Source: Vulcanimicrobiota bacterium (GTDB lineage Bacteria > Vulcanimicrobiota > SpSt-956 > JAKJGF01). Taken from it: a stretch of DNA of 41,593 nucleotides. A program made the position numbers and the translations under genes. This document shows positions 1,870 through 41,593 of this stretch, in pieces (position 1 is the first letter of the stretch; each line of letters opens with the position of its first letter). The stretch spans positions 1 through 41,593 of the forward strand of contig DAIOEN010000040.1 in assembly GCA_036746235.1 (NCBI GenBank), in the 5' to 3' direction. A model generated the notes under the pieces. That model was not told where the DNA came from. It made no database searches and worked only from the letters and a program-made list of their open reading frames with translations.

Positions 1870-3219
1870 ATGAAAATCTCACGTTTATATATAAAACTCT
1901 ACTTTTATTTTCTGGCTGTATTACTCATTATACTCGTAATAATTCCTGTTATATTTTTCTTTTCCGTAGAAAAACCTCATAAAAATCTCTTTGAAAAAAG
2001 GATGTTTCTTTTTACTTCCATAGTGGCAGATTCCCTGTTTGAAAAAGATTTAAAGAAAGCGGTCAATCATATGGCAGAAGAAACAAAATCAGAGATAACA
2101 ATTTATGACCCTCATGGTAAAGTAATGATAAGTTCATCGGAGAAAACAGAAAATCTGACGGAAGAATTGATGAAAAAAGTAGAAAAACGTGGTTTTTACA
2201 GAGAAATATCCGGAAAAAAGAAGGGAATTTTTTTTCTTACTGCTGTTAAGAAACCTGACGGTCATTATATATCAATTTATGCAGAAGGAGATGATGACAG
2301 GAGACATCATTTTTTCCTGTGGGTTATTTCTTTATGTATCTTAATTTCTCTGTTAATATATCCCATGGCAATGCATATAACAAGACCCCTTGAAAGAATA
2401 ACGGAAAAGGCAATAAAATTCTCCAGGGGAGATTTCAGCGTTTTTGAAGGACATAATAAAAAACAGAATGGAGACGAAATTGCAAGACTCGATAATGCTT
2501 TCAACCACATGGCACAGGAGCTTATAGCCATGATAGAAACAAAAAAAGAACTTATGTCCGACATATCTCATGAACTGGGCTCCCCTCTCGCAAGAATGAA
2601 GGTTGCCCTGGAAATCATACAGGATAAAATAGAAAAAAATAAAATTCCTTCTATGGAAAATATAAAAAATCTATCCGATGATATAGATGAAATGACGGTT
2701 CTGGTAAAAGAATTGCTTGAATTCTCAAAGATGGATCTGAAAAATTATACATTGAACTTAAAACCTGTAAACATAGAAGAAATGGTTTCCATTTCCATGA
2801 AAAATTTCGAGAACCTGGCCTCTAAAAGAAATATCACAATGGAACTAAAAAAAGAAGGAGAAAACCATGAAATATCGGGAGATAGCGAAAAAATAAGCAG
2901 GGTTATTACAAATCTACTGTCAAATGCCATTAAATATTCTCCTGAGAGTGGTAAAATCACAGTAATCCTGAAAGGTGAAAAGGAATTTTATTCTCTTTCC
3001 GTAATAGATGAAGGGCCCGGCATAGGAGAAGAAAACAGTGAAAAAATATTCGAACCTTTTTTCAGAGAAGACCCGTCGAGAACAAGAGAAACAGGAGGAA
3101 CAGGACTGGGCCTTGCTATTGCTAAAAAGATAGTGGATCTGCACAGGGGAAAAATATGGGTGGAAAACCCGGGGAAAGAAGGAGCAATTATAACATTTAT
3201 CGTGACCCGTGACGCGTAA
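1870..3219 (+). CDS. Membrane sensor histidine kinase (HAMP-HisKA-HATPase_c), cognate to the upstream OmpR-type regulator
   Basis: N-terminal TM segment, second TM, H-box SHELGSPL, ATPase boxes (NAIKYS, DEGPGIG, GGTGLGLAI); start 3 nt after the RR stop. Confidence 0.85.
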   Translation: MKISRLYIKLYFYFLAVLLIILVIIPVIFFFSVEKPHKNLFEKRMFLFTSIVADSLFEKDLKKAVNHMAEETKSEITIYDPHGKVMISSSEKTENLTEELMKKVEKRGFYREISGKKKGIFFLTAVKKPDGHYISIYAEGDDDRRHHFFLWVISLCILISLLIYPMAMHITRPLERITEKAIKFSRGDFSVFEGHNKKQNGDEIARLDNAFNHMAQELIAMIETKKELMSDISHELGSPLARMKVALEIIQDKIEKNKIPSMENIKNLSDDIDEMTVLVKELLEFSKMDLKNYTLNLKPVNIEEMVSISMKNFENLASKRNITMELKKEGENHEISGDSEKISRVITNLLSNAIKYSPESGKITVILKGEKEFYSLSVIDEGPGIGEENSEKIFEPFFREDPSRTRETGGTGLGLAIAKKIVDLHRGKIWVENPGKEGAIITFIVTRDA

Positions 3220-3353
3220 GGGGAGAAAATCTGCAATACTCAGAATAATTTTCAAATTTCAAAAAAAATTATTATAAATACTATAAAATTAAAAAGGATT
3301 TTTCCATATTTGTAGAATAAAAAAATATATATGACGGGTACCAGGAGGAATTT

Positions 3354-3749
3354 ATGGATAAGAAAAAAAAGAAAAAACTTATACTAATAGTAGATGATGA
3401 CGAACATATAAACAAGGTTTTAAAACTCACCCTTGAAACCGAAGGTTATGATGTTATGTCTGCCATGAGTGCGGAAGAAGCTTTCGGTTATATTGCCTTT
3501 AGAAAACCTGATTTAATTATCTGTGATATAATGATGCCGGAAAAAGACGGTCATGCCTTTCTGAAAGAATTGAGAGAAAACCCTGAAAATAGCGATATAA
3601 TAGTTATAATGCTTACTGCTCTGAGTGATTTTGAGAATATAAGAAAAACTGTTTCTGCAGGGGTTTATGATTATCTGACAAAACCAATAGAAGCTCCCAA
3701 GTTAATAGGTATTGTGAGAAACGCCTTCAATGAATTCTACCAGTGGTGA
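3354..3749 (+). CDS. Stand-alone CheY-like receiver-domain response regulator
   Basis: LILIVDDDE..., ICDIMMPEKDG, IVIMLTA, K in LTKP; 131 aa with no output domain; AGGAGG SD upstream. Confidence 0.8.
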   Translation: MDKKKKKKLILIVDDDEHINKVLKLTLETEGYDVMSAMSAEEAFGYIAFRKPDLIICDIMMPEKDGHAFLKELRENPENSDIIVIMLTALSDFENIRKTVSAGVYDYLTKPIEAPKLIGIVRNAFNEFYQW

Positions 3750-3751
3750 TT

Positions 3752-3780
3752 GTAGAGACGCCCCAATGGGGCGTCTCTAC
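3752..3780. terminator. Bidirectional GC-rich hairpin between convergent genes
   Basis: gtagagacgcccc-aat-ggggcgtctctac: 13-bp perfect stem with 3-nt loop, 3 nt after the 3354..3749 stop and 12 nt after the 3792..5783 stop. Confidence 0.6.
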
Positions 3781-3791
3781 CCGTCAAAAAA

Positions 3792-5783
3792 CTAATTTTC
3801 ACCTAATTTGCCTGACATATAGGCCTGTATCTCTGACAATATAGTAGATCTCCAGTAATAACCGAGTGCTTCAATCTGTTCTTCAGAATTTCCCTGTCTT
3901 AAAAGAGATGCATTTTCATAATAACATATTGGCAGAACAGAATTTTCTTCTCCATTAAGCTGTATAAGAGACAGAGCCCTTTTATCCGCAAAGTTCAACA
4001 TATTTGCAAGAGCTCTTTCGTTCTTTATAGATACAACCTGTGTATAGTTTTTATCAAACTGGGGATCAAGGGAATAAAATTTTGCTATTAACTGTGCAGA
4101 TAATGTATAGGTAGACGAAGCTTCTCCTATAATCATAGGGGCAGATTCAGCCGTTTCCGAAAATTCCTTTTTCATTAATTCAACACCATAGGTACTTGCA
4201 AATGCCATCATATATCTGTTATCAAGCTTCATAAAATTATATTTCATAACATCCGAATGGACACCTGCAGATTTTGCATATTCATCTACAATAGTGCTTT
4301 CAAAATAAGACATATTTGCCTTTGCCGCTCCTGCCATTATTTCTCCCAGTTTTACAAGGTCATCATTATTTACAGTGGCAGGGCTTCCGAAATCTTTGGC
4401 AATATCGAGACAATCCTTTGCAATGGTAAGTAAAGCGCTGGCACAGCAATAATAATACCCTACATAATACAGTTCTTCCATAAGCTGAGATTCGTCATAA
4501 GAACTGATATTTTTCTGTATTGTACTGATTTTATCATCTGCAAGCAGAATGAATCCTTCTGCCATTGTGAGTTTACTGTAGGCTTCGAATAATGCCACAT
4601 AATCACTGGTAGATTCAACATCTTCTGCTTTAAGATTATCCATAGCCGCACTTAACTCGGTTTTAACAGATTCCTTGCTTTCAAGATAGGATATGGCACC
4701 GTCAAAACCGCTGTTCTGATAGCGCTGTATCATATTCATGGCAAGCACTATGGCATCCATTTGAACTGTAGCGCCTGTTGCCCTGTCATAGGCTACACTG
4801 GCCATACCCTGTGAAAGGGCATTATCGGCTTTCTGAGCCAGCTGATCAACCATACCGGCAAAACCGCTGAAATAGGTCTGATAGTCTTTAGGAAAAGATT
4901 TATACTCACCTTTTAACTTTTTGTATCTGCTGTACCATTCCTTTGCTCTTCCTTTAAATCTGTCGAAGGCTTTTGACGGCAGTTGAGGAGGCGTATCGGA
5001 AACTTCCATTTGAGGGAGACTGTCTCCTGTAAGAAGTTTATATGCTTCATATACATTGGAAACTTCCTTTACTTCCAGACCGAGTTTCTTCCCTTTCTCT
5101 ATTACATCGACAGATGCTTTTGTAGCCATATCAACTGAATATCTCTGTCCTGCAGGAATAAGAACAAGGGTTTTTCCTTTTTTCTGAGCACCGTAAAGTT
5201 TCTGAGGTATACCTCCTACAGGGCCTATTGTGCCATCAGGATTAATGGTTCCTGTCATAGTGGCATCTTCTCTTACCTGCTGCCCGCGGAGAGCGGCAAG
5301 AGTACCTACTGTCATAAGACAGCCGGCACTGGGGCCGTCAATTCTGCCTCCTGTATCGAAAGAAAATTCATAATCTGTGGCATCTTTACCAAGGAGCATG
5401 TTTGCAAGGACGACTGCCATCCAGCCCGATGAGCGCCACATATCCCCTGTTCCTCCCGCTTCACTTTCACCGAAGGAAACCTTCATCTTTTCACTGGTTT
5501 TCTTCTCTGCTTTTATTACAACCTCGCTGGAACCTCCGCTGGGAGGATCTCCGCCTAAATAATAAAGAGCATCTATTTTTACCTCTTTTTCTTCCCCTGT
5601 GTCGGGAATTGCCGGTGTTACTTCACCGGCGGAAGGGGTTTTTTGAGCTACATCCGTTCCGGGAGTCACATTACCTGATGGGGTCTGCTGTAGTAATTTA
5701 TTGCATGGAGGACAGCAGCAGGAAGAAAATAGTAGTATAGAAATAATTACTGAAATTGCAAGTATCCCTGTTGTTTTTTTCAT
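3792..5783 (-). CDS. Lipoprotein with N-terminal Lon-like S16 serine peptidase domain and long C-terminal helical domain
   Basis: Lipobox signal (MKKTTGILAISVIISILLFSSC); Lon proteolytic-domain signatures (RIDGPSAG, MTGTINPDGTIGPVGGIPQKL, KTLVLIP); no AAA+ module; AAGGAGG SD. Confidence 0.75.
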   Translation of the reverse strand: MKKTTGILAISVIISILLFSSCCCPPCNKLLQQTPSGNVTPGTDVAQKTPSAGEVTPAIPDTGEEKEVKIDALYYLGGDPPSGGSSEVVIKAEKKTSEKMKVSFGESEAGGTGDMWRSSGWMAVVLANMLLGKDATDYEFSFDTGGRIDGPSAGCLMTVGTLAALRGQQVREDATMTGTINPDGTIGPVGGIPQKLYGAQKKGKTLVLIPAGQRYSVDMATKASVDVIEKGKKLGLEVKEVSNVYEAYKLLTGDSLPQMEVSDTPPQLPSKAFDRFKGRAKEWYSRYKKLKGEYKSFPKDYQTYFSGFAGMVDQLAQKADNALSQGMASVAYDRATGATVQMDAIVLAMNMIQRYQNSGFDGAISYLESKESVKTELSAAMDNLKAEDVESTSDYVALFEAYSKLTMAEGFILLADDKISTIQKNISSYDESQLMEELYYVGYYYCCASALLTIAKDCLDIAKDFGSPATVNNDDLVKLGEIMAGAAKANMSYFESTIVDEYAKSAGVHSDVMKYNFMKLDNRYMMAFASTYGVELMKKEFSETAESAPMIIGEASSTYTLSAQLIAKFYSLDPQFDKNYTQVVSIKNERALANMLNFADKRALSLIQLNGEENSVLPICYYENASLLRQGNSEEQIEALGYYWRSTILSEIQAYMSGKLGEN

Positions 5784-5806
5784 TGTAATAACCTCCTTAA
5801 AAAAAT

Positions 5807-5839
5807 CGTTACGCGTTACGCGTTACGCGTTACGCGAGG
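5807..5839. repeat. Tandem heptamer array (CGTTACG)x4 ending in CGAGGC, in the 5' leader of the S16 lipoprotein gene
   Basis: Four perfect 7-bp units, directly visible; 23 nt from the start codon and adjacent to the SD. Confidence 0.9.
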
Positions 5840-5950
5840 CAAAACCTGAGATGTCAGAGAGAAAACATTCCCGGCGATACTTCCTGACAGATTATATTAC
5901 GGGCTTCCAGATATAAATTCTTCTAAAATCTATAAATTTCCTACATAAAT

Positions 5951-6026
5951 ATAAATTATTTAGATAAATTGCTTCTACTCATTTCCATCTAAAGCCTTAT
6001 TTTACGCTATTAAAAACGAAAATTCC
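5951..6026. promoter_or_regulatory. Copy A of a ~76-80 bp conserved intergenic element (copy B at 29513..29590)
   Basis: ataaattatttagataaAttgcttctac...catctaa..cttattttaCGCTattaaaaaCgaaaattcct aligns at about 85% identity with 29513-29590; both copies are on the + strand and 170-260 bp upstream of minus-strand genes (S16 lipoprotein, MVP). Confidence 0.5.
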
Positions 6027-6038
6027 TATACCAAAAAT

Positions 6039-6443
6039 TTATTTTTTTCCGCCTATGATACGGGAAATTTTTGTTTCCAGAAGAAGTGGAAATTCCGTAA
6101 AAAGCCTGTCATTCAGATATGCCTGAAACCATACAAGTCCCGGTCTGTAAAGAGGAAAATTCTTTAAAGGCGATAAAAATCTCTTAACGGCAAACTGCTG
6201 ATCACAGTGAAAATTCCTCTTTAAAATCTCAAAATAAAGCTGATCCTTCTGGGCTGTAAGTATTTTTATCTCTTCTTTATAATCACCTTCAGGAACTACC
6301 CATTCTGTAACTATACAGAAAGAAATATTCGAAGGATATGTCACAGCTTTGATTTTATTAAATATACCGCTCAATACAGGTCTTTCTGACATATCTTTGC
6401 CTATGGCATCACATAACATAAATGATTTTATAAACACTTCCAA
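6039..6443 (-). CDS. Hypothetical protein (134 aa); TTG start with strong SD
   Basis: The ORF starts at TTG preceded by TTAAGGAG at about 7-nt spacing; no recognisable motifs; an internal ATG (6417-6419) lacks an SD. A heptamer repeat array abuts the SD. Confidence 0.45.
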   Translation of the reverse strand: MEVFIKSFMLCDAIGKDMSERPVLSGIFNKIKAVTYPSNISFCIVTEWVVPEGDYKEEIKILTAQKDQLYFEILKRNFHCDQQFAVKRFLSPLKNFPLYRPGLVWFQAYLNDRLFTEFPLLLETKISRIIGGKK

Positions 6444-6462: not shown

Positions 6463-6495
6463 CGTAACGCGTGACGCGTGACGCGTGGCGCGAGG
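6463..6495. repeat. Tandem heptamers CGTAACG-CGTGACG-CGTGACG-CGTGGCG ending in CGAGG
   Basis: Direct reading; same family and same terminal CGCGAGG as 5807-5839 and 20928-20952. Confidence 0.85.
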
Positions 6496-8067: not shown

Positions 8068-8173
8068 AATTACCGGAGTGTAAACCTGTGTTAGAGCCTT
8101 ATAGAAACAAAAGATCTTACAATTTCGTTAAAAACCCTCGCGTCACGTGTGACGCGTCACGGGTCACGATTTT

Positions 8174-20927: not shown

Positions 20928-21050
20928 ATTCGTGACGCGTCATGCGTGACGCGAGGATTTATTTTAATATAGTTAGTTTCATAACTATCTATATAATAAG
21001 TCGTAATGCGTGATGCGTGATGCGAAGGGATTAAACCCGTCACGCATTAC
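20928..21050. repeat. Two heptamer repeat blocks (cgtgacg cgtcatg cgtgacg cgagg; cgtaatg cgtgatg cgtgatg cg...gtcacgcattacg) followed by (TATATTA)x3
   Basis: Direct reading; contains the 10-bp palindrome tgacgcgtca; abuts the histidine-kinase start codon. Confidence 0.7.
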
Positions 21051-21173
21051 GATATATATATTATATATTATATATTATATTATTCCAGTTATCAAATAAT
21101 TTGACATTAATAACTTAAAAATATATAATATTTATAAATATAAATAAATACTAATGAAAGAAGGTTCAAATAA

Positions 21174-39700: not shown

Positions 39701-40292
39701 ACTTGACCATGTCCTGGCCTGTAATGAGAATGTAAATGTTCTCGTACTTGATACGGAAGTATATTCCAACACAGGCGGACAATCTTCCAAAGCAACACCT
39801 CTTGCATCGACGGCAAAATTTGCCACAGCAGGAAAGCGTACAGGCAAAAAAGATTTAGGTCTTATGGCAATGGCCTATGGTTATGTATATGTGGCTTCAA
39901 TTTCTATGGGAGCAAACAAAAACCAGACACTCAAGGCATTACTTGAGGCAGAATCCTATAACGGCCCGTCACTTGTTATTGCTTATTCGCCCTGTATCAA
40001 TCATGGCATTAATATGAGTAAACCACAGGAAGAACAGAGAATTGCCGTAGAATGCGGATACTGGCCACTTTACCGTTATGATCCCAGACTTGCCGCAGAG
40101 GGTAAAAATCCTCTTACATTCGAGTCAAAAGAACCAAAAGAAGCTTTCAGCACTTATCTAAAAAATGAAAACAGATACCAGACCCTGAAACGTATCTGCC
40201 CCGGGGAAGCTGACAGTCTCTTTGAAGCAGCAGAAAAAGATGCAAAGCGAAGATATGAATATTATAAAAAGCTTGCAGGGCTGCAGTATTAA
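36762..40292 (+). CDS. nifJ: Pyruvate:ferredoxin (flavodoxin) oxidoreductase, single-polypeptide form
   Basis: 1176 aa; two 4Fe-4S ferredoxin motifs (CIQCNQCSYVCP, CVGCGSCVNTCP); TPP-binding GDGWAYDIGYGGLDH; AGGAG SD. Confidence 0.95.
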   Translation: MVKQKMEPFDGNTAASYVAYAFSEVAAIYPITPSSVMGELADEWAAQGRKNMFEQVLKVVQMQSEGGAAGAVHGSLSAGAMTTTYTASQGLLLMFPNMFKIAGEMLPTVFHVSARSLACQSLSIFGDHSDVMAARGTGFALMAAGSVQETLDLAIVSHLATLKSKVPFVNFFDGFRTSHEIMKIHVPEYKDIKDLLEMDYILEFRDRALRPDKPYAKTGAQNPDVYFQGRETSNKYYEVTPAIVQEYMDKVAEKFGRHYHLFDYIGAKDAEKIIIAMGSGCEAIEECVNYLTKKGEKVGAIKVRLYRPFSVEALKKAIPESVKKIAVLDRTKEPGSIGEPLYLDVKTALSDKNLVIIGGRYGLSSKEFTPTMVKAVYDHLDNECFHDFTVGITDDVTHRSVKIREEISAEQKGIVRCKFWGLGSDGTVSANKNSIKIICDHTDMFGQAYFSYDSKKSGGITVSHLRFGKEPIQSTYLLKEVDFVACHNPAYIGRYDLLEGIVEGGTFLLNSPWKSEEVFDHLTEDLQKTIIDKKLKFYNIDALKIAEEVGLGNRISTVMQAAFFKISGVLDEKEAIDLVKGAIKKTFSKKGENIVKMNWDCVDKTSEALVQVKVPGTITKSAKAPKLIPDDAIAFAHDVIEPIMRLKGDDIPVSKMPLDGYTPTGTTRLEKRGVAPFVPHWIAENCIQCNQCSYVCPHATIRAKQIDPADLKDAPETFNTLKSNTKNTRDLKYKVQIYIEDCVGCGSCVNTCPAKTKALELKLLSEEREKGEAKNAEFFDRLPDNVVDGIDPGTLKGSQFLQPLFEFSGACAGCGETPYVKLVTQLFGDRMIIANATGCSSIYGGTFPTIPYSVTKSGKGPAWANSLFEDNAEYGFGFRLAVNANRKQLAFNVDKLLEIGTTPALEEVLKKGKELWKSVNTEAKDNAEKIKALLPEALKSAKSESLPFIKKVIELQDYFVDKSIWAFGGDGWAYDIGYGGLDHVLACNENVNVLVLDTEVYSNTGGQSSKATPLASTAKFATAGKRTGKKDLGLMAMAYGYVYVASISMGANKNQTLKALLEAESYNGPSLVIAYSPCINHGINMSKPQEEQRIAVECGYWPLYRYDPRLAAEGKNPLTFESKEPKEAFSTYLKNENRYQTLKRICPGEADSLFEAAEKDAKRRYEYYKKLAGLQY

Positions 40293-40388
40293 TCAGTAAT
40301 CAGTAACCAGTGATCAGTGACCAGTAAAATTCATTTACCGGTCACTGGTCACTGGTCACTGGTCACTGGTCACCGGTCACCGGTCACT
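40284..40388. repeat. Inverted heptamer arrays: (CAGTRAY)x6 - 11-nt spacer - (GGTCACY)x7, forming a long imperfect hairpin between PFOR and the dehydratase gene
   Basis: cagtatt..cagtaat cagtaac cagtgat cagtgac cagtaaa | attcatttacc | ggtcact x4 ggtcacc x2 ggtcact. The PFOR stop codon lies within the first unit; the false N-terminal extension of ORF 40317.. (…VTGHWSLVTGH…) comes from this array. Confidence 0.85.
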
Positions 40389-40394
40389 GATATT

Positions 40395-41534
40395 ATGATA
40401 AACAAAAACTTCTGGAAAAAAAAGAAAATTTTCTTAACAGGCCATACAGGTTTTAAAGGTTCATGGCTTTCTCTCTGGCTTTCTTCCCTTGGCGCAGAAA
40501 TAACAGGTTATGCTCTCAATCCTCCGACAGAACCGGCTTTATTCAATCTATGCCGGATTGATAAACTCGTTAATTCTATAATCTCTGATATAAGAGACAG
40601 AGATACATTGAAGGAAAAAATGATTGAATCAGAGCCTGATATAGTTATACACATGGCAGCACAGCCAATCGTGAGAGAATCCTATATAAATCCGGTTGAA
40701 ACCTATGAAATAAATGTCATGGGTACAGTAAATATGCTGGAAGCAGTAAGAGCCTGTAAGACTGTGAGAGCAGTCATAAATGTGACTACAGATAAATGCT
40801 ATGAAAATAAAGAATGGCCCTGGGGTTACAGAGAACATGACCCTTTATGCGGTTATGACCCCTATTCAAACAGCAAGTCCTGTTCGGAACTTGTAACAGT
40901 TTCCTACAGGAATTCCTTTTTCAATCAAAAAGATTATAAGTCTCATAAAGTAGGACTTGCTTCGGCAAGATCGGGGAATGTCATAGGCGGAGGAGACTGG
41001 GCTAAAGACAGACTCATACCTGATTGCATCAGAGCAATACTTGAGGGGAAAAAAATAATCATAAGAAATCCTGACTCTATAAGGCCATGGCAGCATGTGC
41101 TGGAACCTCTGAGCGGTTATATGGTAATGGCAGAAAAACTTTATAAAAATGGCTCTAAATATTCGGAAGGATGGAATTTCGGCCCTGATGATAATGATGC
41201 AAAATCTGTAGAGTGGATTGTAAAAAAAATATGTGAGAAATGGGGTCATGGAGCAACCTACCAGATAGACAAAGGTAAACATCCTCATGAAGCCCATTAT
41301 CTTAAACTGGACTGTTCAAAAGTAAAATCTCGCATCCGGTGGTATCCGCAATGGCATCTGGAAGAGGCTATAGACAGAATCATTGAATGGACACTGGCCT
41401 ATAAAGATAAAAAAGATTTAAGAGAAATATGCCTGAAACAGATAAAGGAATATTCTGATAATAAAAGAAAAAAGCAATATATGTTCAGTGGTTTTTTGAA
41501 AAGCATAGTAAATTCTAAGTACCGTAACAGATAA
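40395..41534 (+). CDS. rfbG: CDP-glucose 4,6-dehydratase (NAD-dependent epimerase/dehydratase family)
   Basis: True start MINKNFWKKKKIFLTGHTGFKGSWL (GxxGxxG at the N-terminus); catalytic YxxxK region; close similarity to RfbG/DdhB-type CDP-glucose dehydratases. Confidence 0.8.
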   Translation: MINKNFWKKKKIFLTGHTGFKGSWLSLWLSSLGAEITGYALNPPTEPALFNLCRIDKLVNSIISDIRDRDTLKEKMIESEPDIVIHMAAQPIVRESYINPVETYEINVMGTVNMLEAVRACKTVRAVINVTTDKCYENKEWPWGYREHDPLCGYDPYSNSKSCSELVTVSYRNSFFNQKDYKSHKVGLASARSGNVIGGGDWAKDRLIPDCIRAILEGKKIIIRNPDSIRPWQHVLEPLSGYMVMAEKLYKNGSKYSEGWNFGPDDNDAKSVEWIVKKICEKWGHGATYQIDKGKHPHEAHYLKLDCSKVKSRIRWYPQWHLEEAIDRIIEWTLAYKDKKDLREICLKQIKEYSDNKRKKQYMFSGFLKSIVNSKYRNR

Positions 41535-41593
41535 AATTGTATCCGTAAAAAGCTTCTGCCTGGCAGGCTCTGGAGAAGAAAAATTAGTTTTTT

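Follow-up and report, generated by a model that had tools for sequence, protein, structure and literature searches.

Two similar intergenic stretches of a Vulcanimicrobiota contig are probably copies of a ~92-nt mobile repeat without terminal inverted repeats

Two similar intergenic stretches of a Vulcanimicrobiota contig (GCA_036746235.1, DAIOEN010000040.1, positions 1 to 41,593; this whole stretch of 41,593 nt is referred to as the window) probably belong to a family of mobile repeats specific to this lineage, with units of ~92 nt that are non-coding and non-autonomous and resemble MITEs but lack terminal inverted repeats. We put the probability of this reading at roughly 70%. A preliminary description of the window had named the remnant of a common mobile carrier as one of several candidates for the pair, and this candidate turned out to be essentially right, as the stretches fall into a dispersed, insertion-competent repeat family. 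Full-text literature, searched by text and not by sequence, held no description of the ~92-nt repeat. The family is a previously undescribed small repeat in a little-studied, uncultured lineage.

The two stretches had been reported to be ~85% identical. In the family alignment their pairwise identity is 0.855, which is far above chance. Positions 5951-6027 and 29513-29590 of the window align on the plus strand with long identical blocks. The 23-mer TTATTTAGATAANTTGCTTCTAC, with up to three mismatches allowed, occurs exactly twice in the 41.6-kb window and was absent from 100 dinucleotide shuffles. Against the family profile, nhmmer yielded E-values of 3e-21 for the first stretch (copy A) and 3e-19 for the second (copy B). 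The positions given previously for both copies were correct, but the extent of copy A had been drawn too short and copy B is in fact a 3'-truncated element. Copy A spans positions 5952-6042 (+) and is full length (nhmmer profile positions 2-93), with a decayed 3' terminus and a 1-nt deletion in the middle of the element. Read directly from the sequence, its left terminal 7-mer is TAAATTA (5952-5958, +); the right one (6035-6041, +) has decayed to AAATTTA in place of TAAATTA. Positions 6039-6041 are also the TAA stop codon (minus strand) of a DUF6941 gene (6039-6443, -), which in gene direction lies immediately upstream of copy A. Copy B (29514-29590, +) covers profile positions 2-78 in the nhmmer alignment. 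It starts with the left terminal 7-mer TAAATTA (29514-29520, +) and is missing the final ~14 nt, the right 7-mer included.

The copies had been placed on the plus strand, 170-260 bp upstream of minus-strand genes, which is in line with the measured distances of 168 nt for copy A and 262 nt for copy B. The former separates copy A from the start codon of the gene at 3792-5783 (-), which encodes a 663-aa protein with a Lon_C domain. The latter separates copy B from the start codon of the gene at 26786-29251 (-), which encodes an 821-aa protein with MVP_shoulder and Vault_3 domains. The spacer harbouring copy B also belongs to the divergent lepA gene (29784-31589, +). An orthologue of copy A was found in the MAG ER1, within the corresponding spacer between the DUF6941 and Lon-like genes (locus L005). 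Copy A is best explained as a full-length element that inserted long ago between the DUF6941 and Lon-like lipoprotein genes, and copy B as another old insertion, later shortened at its 3' end, in the divergent MVP/lepA spacer.

A profile built with 14 full copies detected ~50 copies (nhmmer) in 355 kb of related loci and window sequence, two of them in the window. The neighbouring genes are unrelated. A copy count across the genome had been proposed previously, with many copies scattered without gene association taken to speak against co-regulation, and this is essentially the situation encountered. The median pairwise identity within the family is 0.874, and the window pair (0.855) is typical. 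Scanning one genome per species with the seed TTTAGATAANTTGCTTCTAC (match at 19 of 20 nt) yielded 22 loci, 18 of which are true copies from three related MAGs: 'Vulcanimicrobiota bacterium' ER1 (10 loci) and ER2 (4 loci) and a MAG labelled 'uncultured Synergistia' (4 loci). The remaining four were rejected as chance matches in unrelated genomes, in which the similarity ends at the seed. When metagenomes were scanned with ATTAAAAATGAAAATTCCTATAC, a seed taken from the opposite end of the element, 36 further loci were obtained, one of which is an activated-sludge contig. Copies were found in sister MAGs and in sludge or digester metagenomes, and a single Candidatus Eremiobacterota (Vulcanimicrobiota) MAG contains at least 11 of them. 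The element has no match in the phage collection. Plasmid and viral origins were rejected: the sole plasmid match is a 52-nt chance alignment in Borrelia, and the one IMG/VR match is a chance 21-mer within a coding region.

The full unit of ~92 nt can be written as TAAATTA-TTTAGATAAAYTGCYTCTACWTAATTTTCATCTAAAGCYTTATTTTACGMCATTAAAAATGAAAATTCCTATACYYT-TAAATTA, and the counted G+C content of the consensus is ~25%. When conservation was scored for each half on copies that were not seeded in that half, the termini were best conserved, with 0.92 for the 5' 17 nt compared to 0.74-0.75 at columns 18-45. The segment regarded earlier as the conserved core (TTGCTTCTAC/GTAGAAGCAA) is among the least conserved parts of the element (0.74). 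The left 7-mer is TAAATTA in 33 of the 36 near-full copies and the right one in 21. Terminal inverted repeats were not detected beyond the near-palindromic 7-mer itself (TAAATTA vs TAATTTA): the terminal inverted-repeat local score of 5 was equalled by 1759 of 2000 shuffles and, once the 7-mers were removed, by 1966 of 2000. The element is non-coding, with stops in five of the six frames including every antisense frame. One plus-strand frame is open (NYLDKLLL...MKIPIPLN), but a coding or peptide reading was rejected, since this frame is broken in several copies. In L017 and L018 its ATG is directly followed by a TAA stop, in L016 the ATG is deleted, indels shift the frame, and it is not preceded by a Shine-Dalgarno sequence. 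A template/variable pair of a DGR was rejected as well, because the sequence encodes no protein and its copies do not differ specifically at adenines. Apart from near-full copies, we observed a 3'-only sub-family (L025 3652-3687, L048 866-899, L053 1636-1678, L045 467-528), which retains just ~35-45 nt of the 3' part of the element (ATTAAAAATGAAAATTCCTATACTATKAAATTA); in L048 the fragment directly follows a TAAATTA. This sub-family consists either of internally deleted derivatives or of a separable 3' module.

Filled and empty versions of the same site provide insertion footprints. The filled site in L030 reads ...CTGTAAAA TAAATTA (element) TAAATTA TATAAGGC... and, in a second reading of the flanks, ...GTCTGTAAAA-TAAATTA-(element)-TAAATTA-TATAAGGCAAAT.... 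In L062, a longer contig from the same organism as the window, which extends past window position 41593, the empty site reads ...CTGTAAAA CAAATTA TATAAGGC... and likewise ...GTCTGTAAAA-CAAATTA-TATAAGGCAAAT.... L056 is also empty at the L030-type site, with CAACTTA. A filled site has exactly one element and one 7-mer more than an empty one; the empty sites read CAAATTA and CAACTTA instead of TAAATTA and stem from related, not identical, genomes. A third copy just past the end of the window, suspected because the repeat found there adjoins the element at another locus, was rejected, as L062 has an empty site there. In L021 the element lies upstream of an orthologous Ser/Thr kinase gene, directly after a heptamer block; the kinase-upstream site of L039 is without the element and features a copy ~270 nt further on instead. 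TAAATTA is present at both ends in 21 of the 36 near-full copies, L004 has the variant TTAATTA at both ends, and in L010 one TAAATTA is common to two tandem copies. Nesting occurs in both directions: the element of L030 sits in the loop of another hairpin-type repeat, and the element of L006 (ER1) has itself received a different repeat of ~145 nt, whereas the orthologous copies in L003 and L017 are intact. Several copies are located at contig ends, as expected of assembly-breaking repeats.

Taken together, the loci show that the element inserts at TAAATTA-like sites of AT-rich intergenic DNA, leaving two flanking 7-mers where the empty site has one, and that inserted copies are subsequently eroded by point mutations, deletions and new insertions. 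The conserved termini may be recognised by an enzyme acting in trans, either a transposase or a recombinase. The second 7-mer either arose by duplication of the target site or belongs to the element as its right end. By analogy with IS200/IS605-type or IS110-type elements, insertion 3' of the target motif would be an alternative to duplication. The asymmetry between left and right 7-mers (33/36 vs 21/36) is not predicted by a simple duplication model, and insertion 3' of a fixed motif explains it no worse than a classic duplication does. In the 355 kb examined, we found neither a longer or autonomous element with the ends TTTAGATAAAYTGC... and ...GAAAATTCCTATACYYT nor a transposase gene. A parent IS composed of split fragments was rejected, since 5'-only (L007, L024, L012) and 3'-only fragments (L025, L040/L050, L048, L053) never pair around a longer insert. 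The neighbours of terminal fragments are an HlyD-family gene, located downstream of the 5'-only fragment in L007, and a hybrid kinase gene, neither of which encodes a transposase.

All 36 non-redundant copies are intergenic. Their neighbours encode a Uma2 nuclease, a sigma-54-dependent response regulator, an acyltransferase, a radical SAM protein, a Ser/Thr kinase, a LOG-family protein and a hybrid histidine kinase, and no transposase was present among the neighbouring genes scanned. Start codons are ~1 to ~400 nt away, and both orientations relative to the downstream gene occur, including copies between convergent genes (L013/L023) and copies in sense orientation directly upstream of genes (L003/L017, L018, L012). 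The orientation is nevertheless biased. In 23 of 31 copies, both window copies among them, the gene on the 5' side is antisense to the element, so that its start faces the 5' end of the element. This is a point in favour of the preliminary description: the end facing its two genes is the one that faces a gene start in most copies of the family. The 3'-side flanking gene is antisense in 19 of 29 copies, and in tandem spacers the antisense strand is co-directional with the flanking genes in 12 of 14. Many copies occupy short spacers of the operon type, in which the TAA stop of the upstream gene falls within one terminal 7-mer and the Shine-Dalgarno sequence of the next gene follows 3-15 nt past the other end of the element. 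Such a placement is explained by a target that contains TAA, together with selection against gene disruption. Selection could have caused the orientation bias, through polarity effects or through an outward promoter that was exapted; a strand-specific insertion mechanism combined with gene-strand bias is an equally good explanation. The position of both window copies upstream of minus-strand genes is best explained by this general pattern of insertion or retention and not by co-regulation. In a separate case (L012 2656-2724), the 5' 70 nt of the element lie immediately upstream of an ORF (2721-6125) for a 1134-aa hybrid histidine kinase, which seemingly starts at the element's ATG (CATTAAATATG...) without a Shine-Dalgarno sequence. 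It is possible that this kinase captured its start codon and 5' region from the repeat.

Correia elements in Neisseria are portable, outward-facing regulatory cassettes. An analogous role of the element, whose antisense strand would carry an outward promoter or a 5'-UTR module and thereby give the Lon-like and MVP genes a shared input, is unlikely in our view, but it has several observations on its side. Besides the 23 of 31 copies with the 5' end towards a gene start and the ratio of 12 to 2 in tandem spacers, at least eight independent copies have a Shine-Dalgarno sequence and ATG within 3-15 nt past their antisense end ...TTTATCTAAATAATTTA, and the hexamer AATAAT (5/6 matches to TATAAT) is located 3 nt from this end. 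MITEs carrying sigma-70-like promoters have been documented (PMC10969869). The promoter analyses, however, did not single out the element: the best -35/-10 matches throughout the family score ~8 of 12 on either strand compared to 8.4 in composition-matched shuffles, and a consensus promoter scan found nothing inside either window copy. The -10 element TTTATAWT proposed earlier straddles the junction of element and flank and is not conserved in other family members. A sigma-54 promoter on the plus strand was also rejected, as TTGC is present but the GG at -24 is missing. Start-codon distances ranging from ~1 to ~400 nt and the existence of sense-orientation and convergent copies argue against a cassette, and many of the short-distance cases are operon-type spacers, where no promoter is needed because the upstream stop lies within the other terminal 7-mer. 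Since the 3'-side gene is also mostly antisense (19 to 10), a general strand bias fits the data as well as a promoter does. Since orientation is biased ~3:1 towards copies whose antisense strand runs in the direction of the flanking genes, some copies could have an exapted regulatory role. More doubtful still is the wider proposal that an inverted-repeat-free 85-nt unit, integrating at TAAATTA with its antisense end preferentially upstream of Shine-Dalgarno sequences, constitutes a promoter or operon-spacer cassette that is mobile in this uncultured Eremiobacterota lineage, perhaps through a site-specific and not a cut-and-paste enzyme.

The idea of a shared cis-regulatory module for the Lon-like lipoprotein and MVP genes was not borne out, as the neighbours of the family are unrelated in function, both orientations and variable distances occur, the supposed core is poorly conserved, promoter-like scores are no higher than in shuffles, and the MVP copy is decayed or absent in relatives. 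For the latter, orthologous lepA-MVP spacers of the three closest relatives examined (L066, L067 and L068) were compared. In L066 (95% aa identity of MVP), the flanks are close to those of the window, but the element region is heavily diverged, contains a ~75-nt interruption and gives only a marginal profile match (E=0.86). L067 (MVP 91%) has traces of the element only. In L068 (MVP 86%), the spacer is 222 nt long and the element region is absent, with a promoter-like TTGACA box of lepA being kept. The copy upstream of MVP is therefore not maintained by selection in the nearest relatives, which again speaks against a regulatory cassette. The copy upstream of the Lon-like gene is kept in ER1 (L005), the sole orthologue examined. 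L066 still has a diverged right end (…TTAATTA), which shows that the 3' end of copy B was deleted in the window lineage. The synteny of lepA and MVP is conserved in the three closest relatives. The bacterial MVP homologue itself (26786-29251, -) is far from rare: among 8000 candidates scored, at least 6801 proteins matched with E<=1e-30, with sources including Eremiobacterota/Xenobiia, Riflebacteria, Desulfobacterales, Magnetoovum, Wallbacteria and others. The nearest relatives of the window protein are annotated as Candidatus Eremiobacterota or Xenobiia, which assigns the organism of the window to this lineage.

Comparison of window positions 29514-29590 with L066 2600-2800 revealed that the orthologous copies differ far more than their flanks, and that copy B is much nearer to the family consensus than its L066 orthologue. 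As judged from these sequences, this suggests either conversion of copy B from another dispersed copy or accelerated decay in L066. The former hints at a spread without transposition machinery, in which intergenic segments would have been duplicated or converted, or the copies would be relics of an ancient tandem array; the loci examined, having no transposase or parent element, agree with this. Such a spread is nonetheless very unlikely, as it does not account for sharp, identical boundaries at the 7-mers in dozens of unrelated contexts, for filled and empty sites differing by precisely the element and one 7-mer, for nested insertions, or for the stronger conservation of the termini relative to the interior.

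A small RNA or a cis-acting structured leader, which had also been among the early candidates, is extremely improbable: the element is a conserved ~90-nt non-coding intergenic unit with a 7-bp inverted repeat (TTTAGAT...ATCTAAA), but folds of single sequences are no better than shuffles on both strands (z +0.4 to +0.8), substitutions in the arms of the repeat are uncompensated, RNAalifold on 36 copies returned 0 pairs for the plus strand and 5 weak pairs for the minus strand, Rfam gave nothing at gathering score and one chance-level match (E=0.5), no terminator was found in or beside either window copy, and the element occurs in both orientations relative to genes. The covariance check suggested for this candidate revealed no compensatory change across the 36 copies, and the candidate is left without structural support from folds, RNAalifold or Rfam.

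Repeats crowd the intergenic DNA of the lineage: besides the ~92-nt family there are at least two more small mobile repeats, and tandem heptamers are pervasive. The window ends (41527-41593, continued in L062 7454-7596) inside a hairpin-type repeat of ~143 nt downstream of an epimerase gene. This repeat has inverted termini of ~20 bp (GCTTCTGCCTGGCAGGCTCT ... AGAGCCTGTCAGGCAGAAGC), with further copies in L030 (where the 92-nt element is in its loop), L056 and L010, and looks like a classical MITE with terminal inverted repeats. Rfam yielded only sub-threshold matches to long hairpins (plant miRNA precursor) for it. A second family of ~145 nt (window 20968-21051, L006 2169-2307, L021 6929-7072) has short inverted ends (TTTCATAAC ... 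GTTATGAAA) around a palindromic block that consists of tandem heptamers (CGTAATG/CGTGATG ... CATTACG). As a copy of this repeat is inserted inside the L006 element, at least some heptamer blocks travel on a mobile unit. Tandem heptamers of 3-7 units (CGTTACG, CGTGACG, CAGTGAC, GGTCACT, TCACCAC and others) were observed at window positions 5807-5836, 6463-6492, 8139-8168, 29277-29305, 31599-31646, 40290-40389 and elsewhere. Most of those inspected are in gene-flanking spacers, several of them 10-15 nt upstream of a Shine-Dalgarno sequence, and the same architecture was found in loci of related MAGs.

For annotation, these results remove a false lead, as there is no evidence that the Lon-like lipoprotein and the bacterial vault-protein homologue have a regulator in common. 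What genome biology gains is modest: a family whose insertions leave clear footprints and whose 7-bp target is unusually specific. As a marker it is of practical use, since it accounts for contig breaks in these MAGs and could serve for strain typing. It also provides a clean case for studying how repeats without inverted termini mobilise and why strand bias arises.

Among known systems, REP/BIME sequences mobilised by RAYT share with the element that they are short, intergenic, highly repeated and often located between co-directional genes. REPs are, however, G+C-rich imperfect palindromes of 20-40 nt, whereas the element is 92 nt long, has a G+C content of ~25%, is not palindromic and forms no significant hairpin. 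The bcr1 repeat of the Bacillus cereus group is a dispersed repeat of ~155 bp with directly repeated TTTAT target flanks, and has been reported to form a stable RNA structure. As a small mobile repeat of intergenic DNA whose two ends carry a fixed, AT-rich direct repeat, the element would be analogous to bcr1, but it differs in sequence, length, host phylum and the lack of a stable RNA fold.

PATEs derived from IS200/IS605 and elements of the IS110/IS492 type are target-specific and devoid of terminal inverted repeats, and single-strand transposons show an orientation bias relative to gene or replication direction. The element would resemble these systems in lacking terminal inverted repeats and in the fixed motif that abuts its left end (33/36), and its strand bias recalls that of single-strand transposons. 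On the other side, no subterminal hairpins were found in it, and no TnpA, TnpB or DEDD transposase is encoded among the neighbours scanned. A unit of 85 nt is, in addition, very small for a circular intermediate.

MITEs are small, AT-rich and intergenic, with flanking direct repeats and nested clusters (PMC10969869). In contrast to them, the element has neither terminal inverted repeats nor a stable hairpin, no parent IS was found in 355 kb, and its flanking repeat is a nearly invariant TAAATTA and not a variable duplication or a simple TA. Like prokaryotic MITEs, such as Correia/NEMIS of Neisseria, RUP of pneumococcus and ERIC, it is shorter than 500 bp, AT-rich, non-coding and present in many dispersed copies. 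Further common features are insertion into AT-rich intergenic DNA, often beside genes, nested clusters, and flanking direct repeats that fade with age, although the near-invariance of the 7-mer means that one of its copies may be the element's own. Lacking the defining inverted repeats, the element is not a canonical MITE, but it behaves like one.
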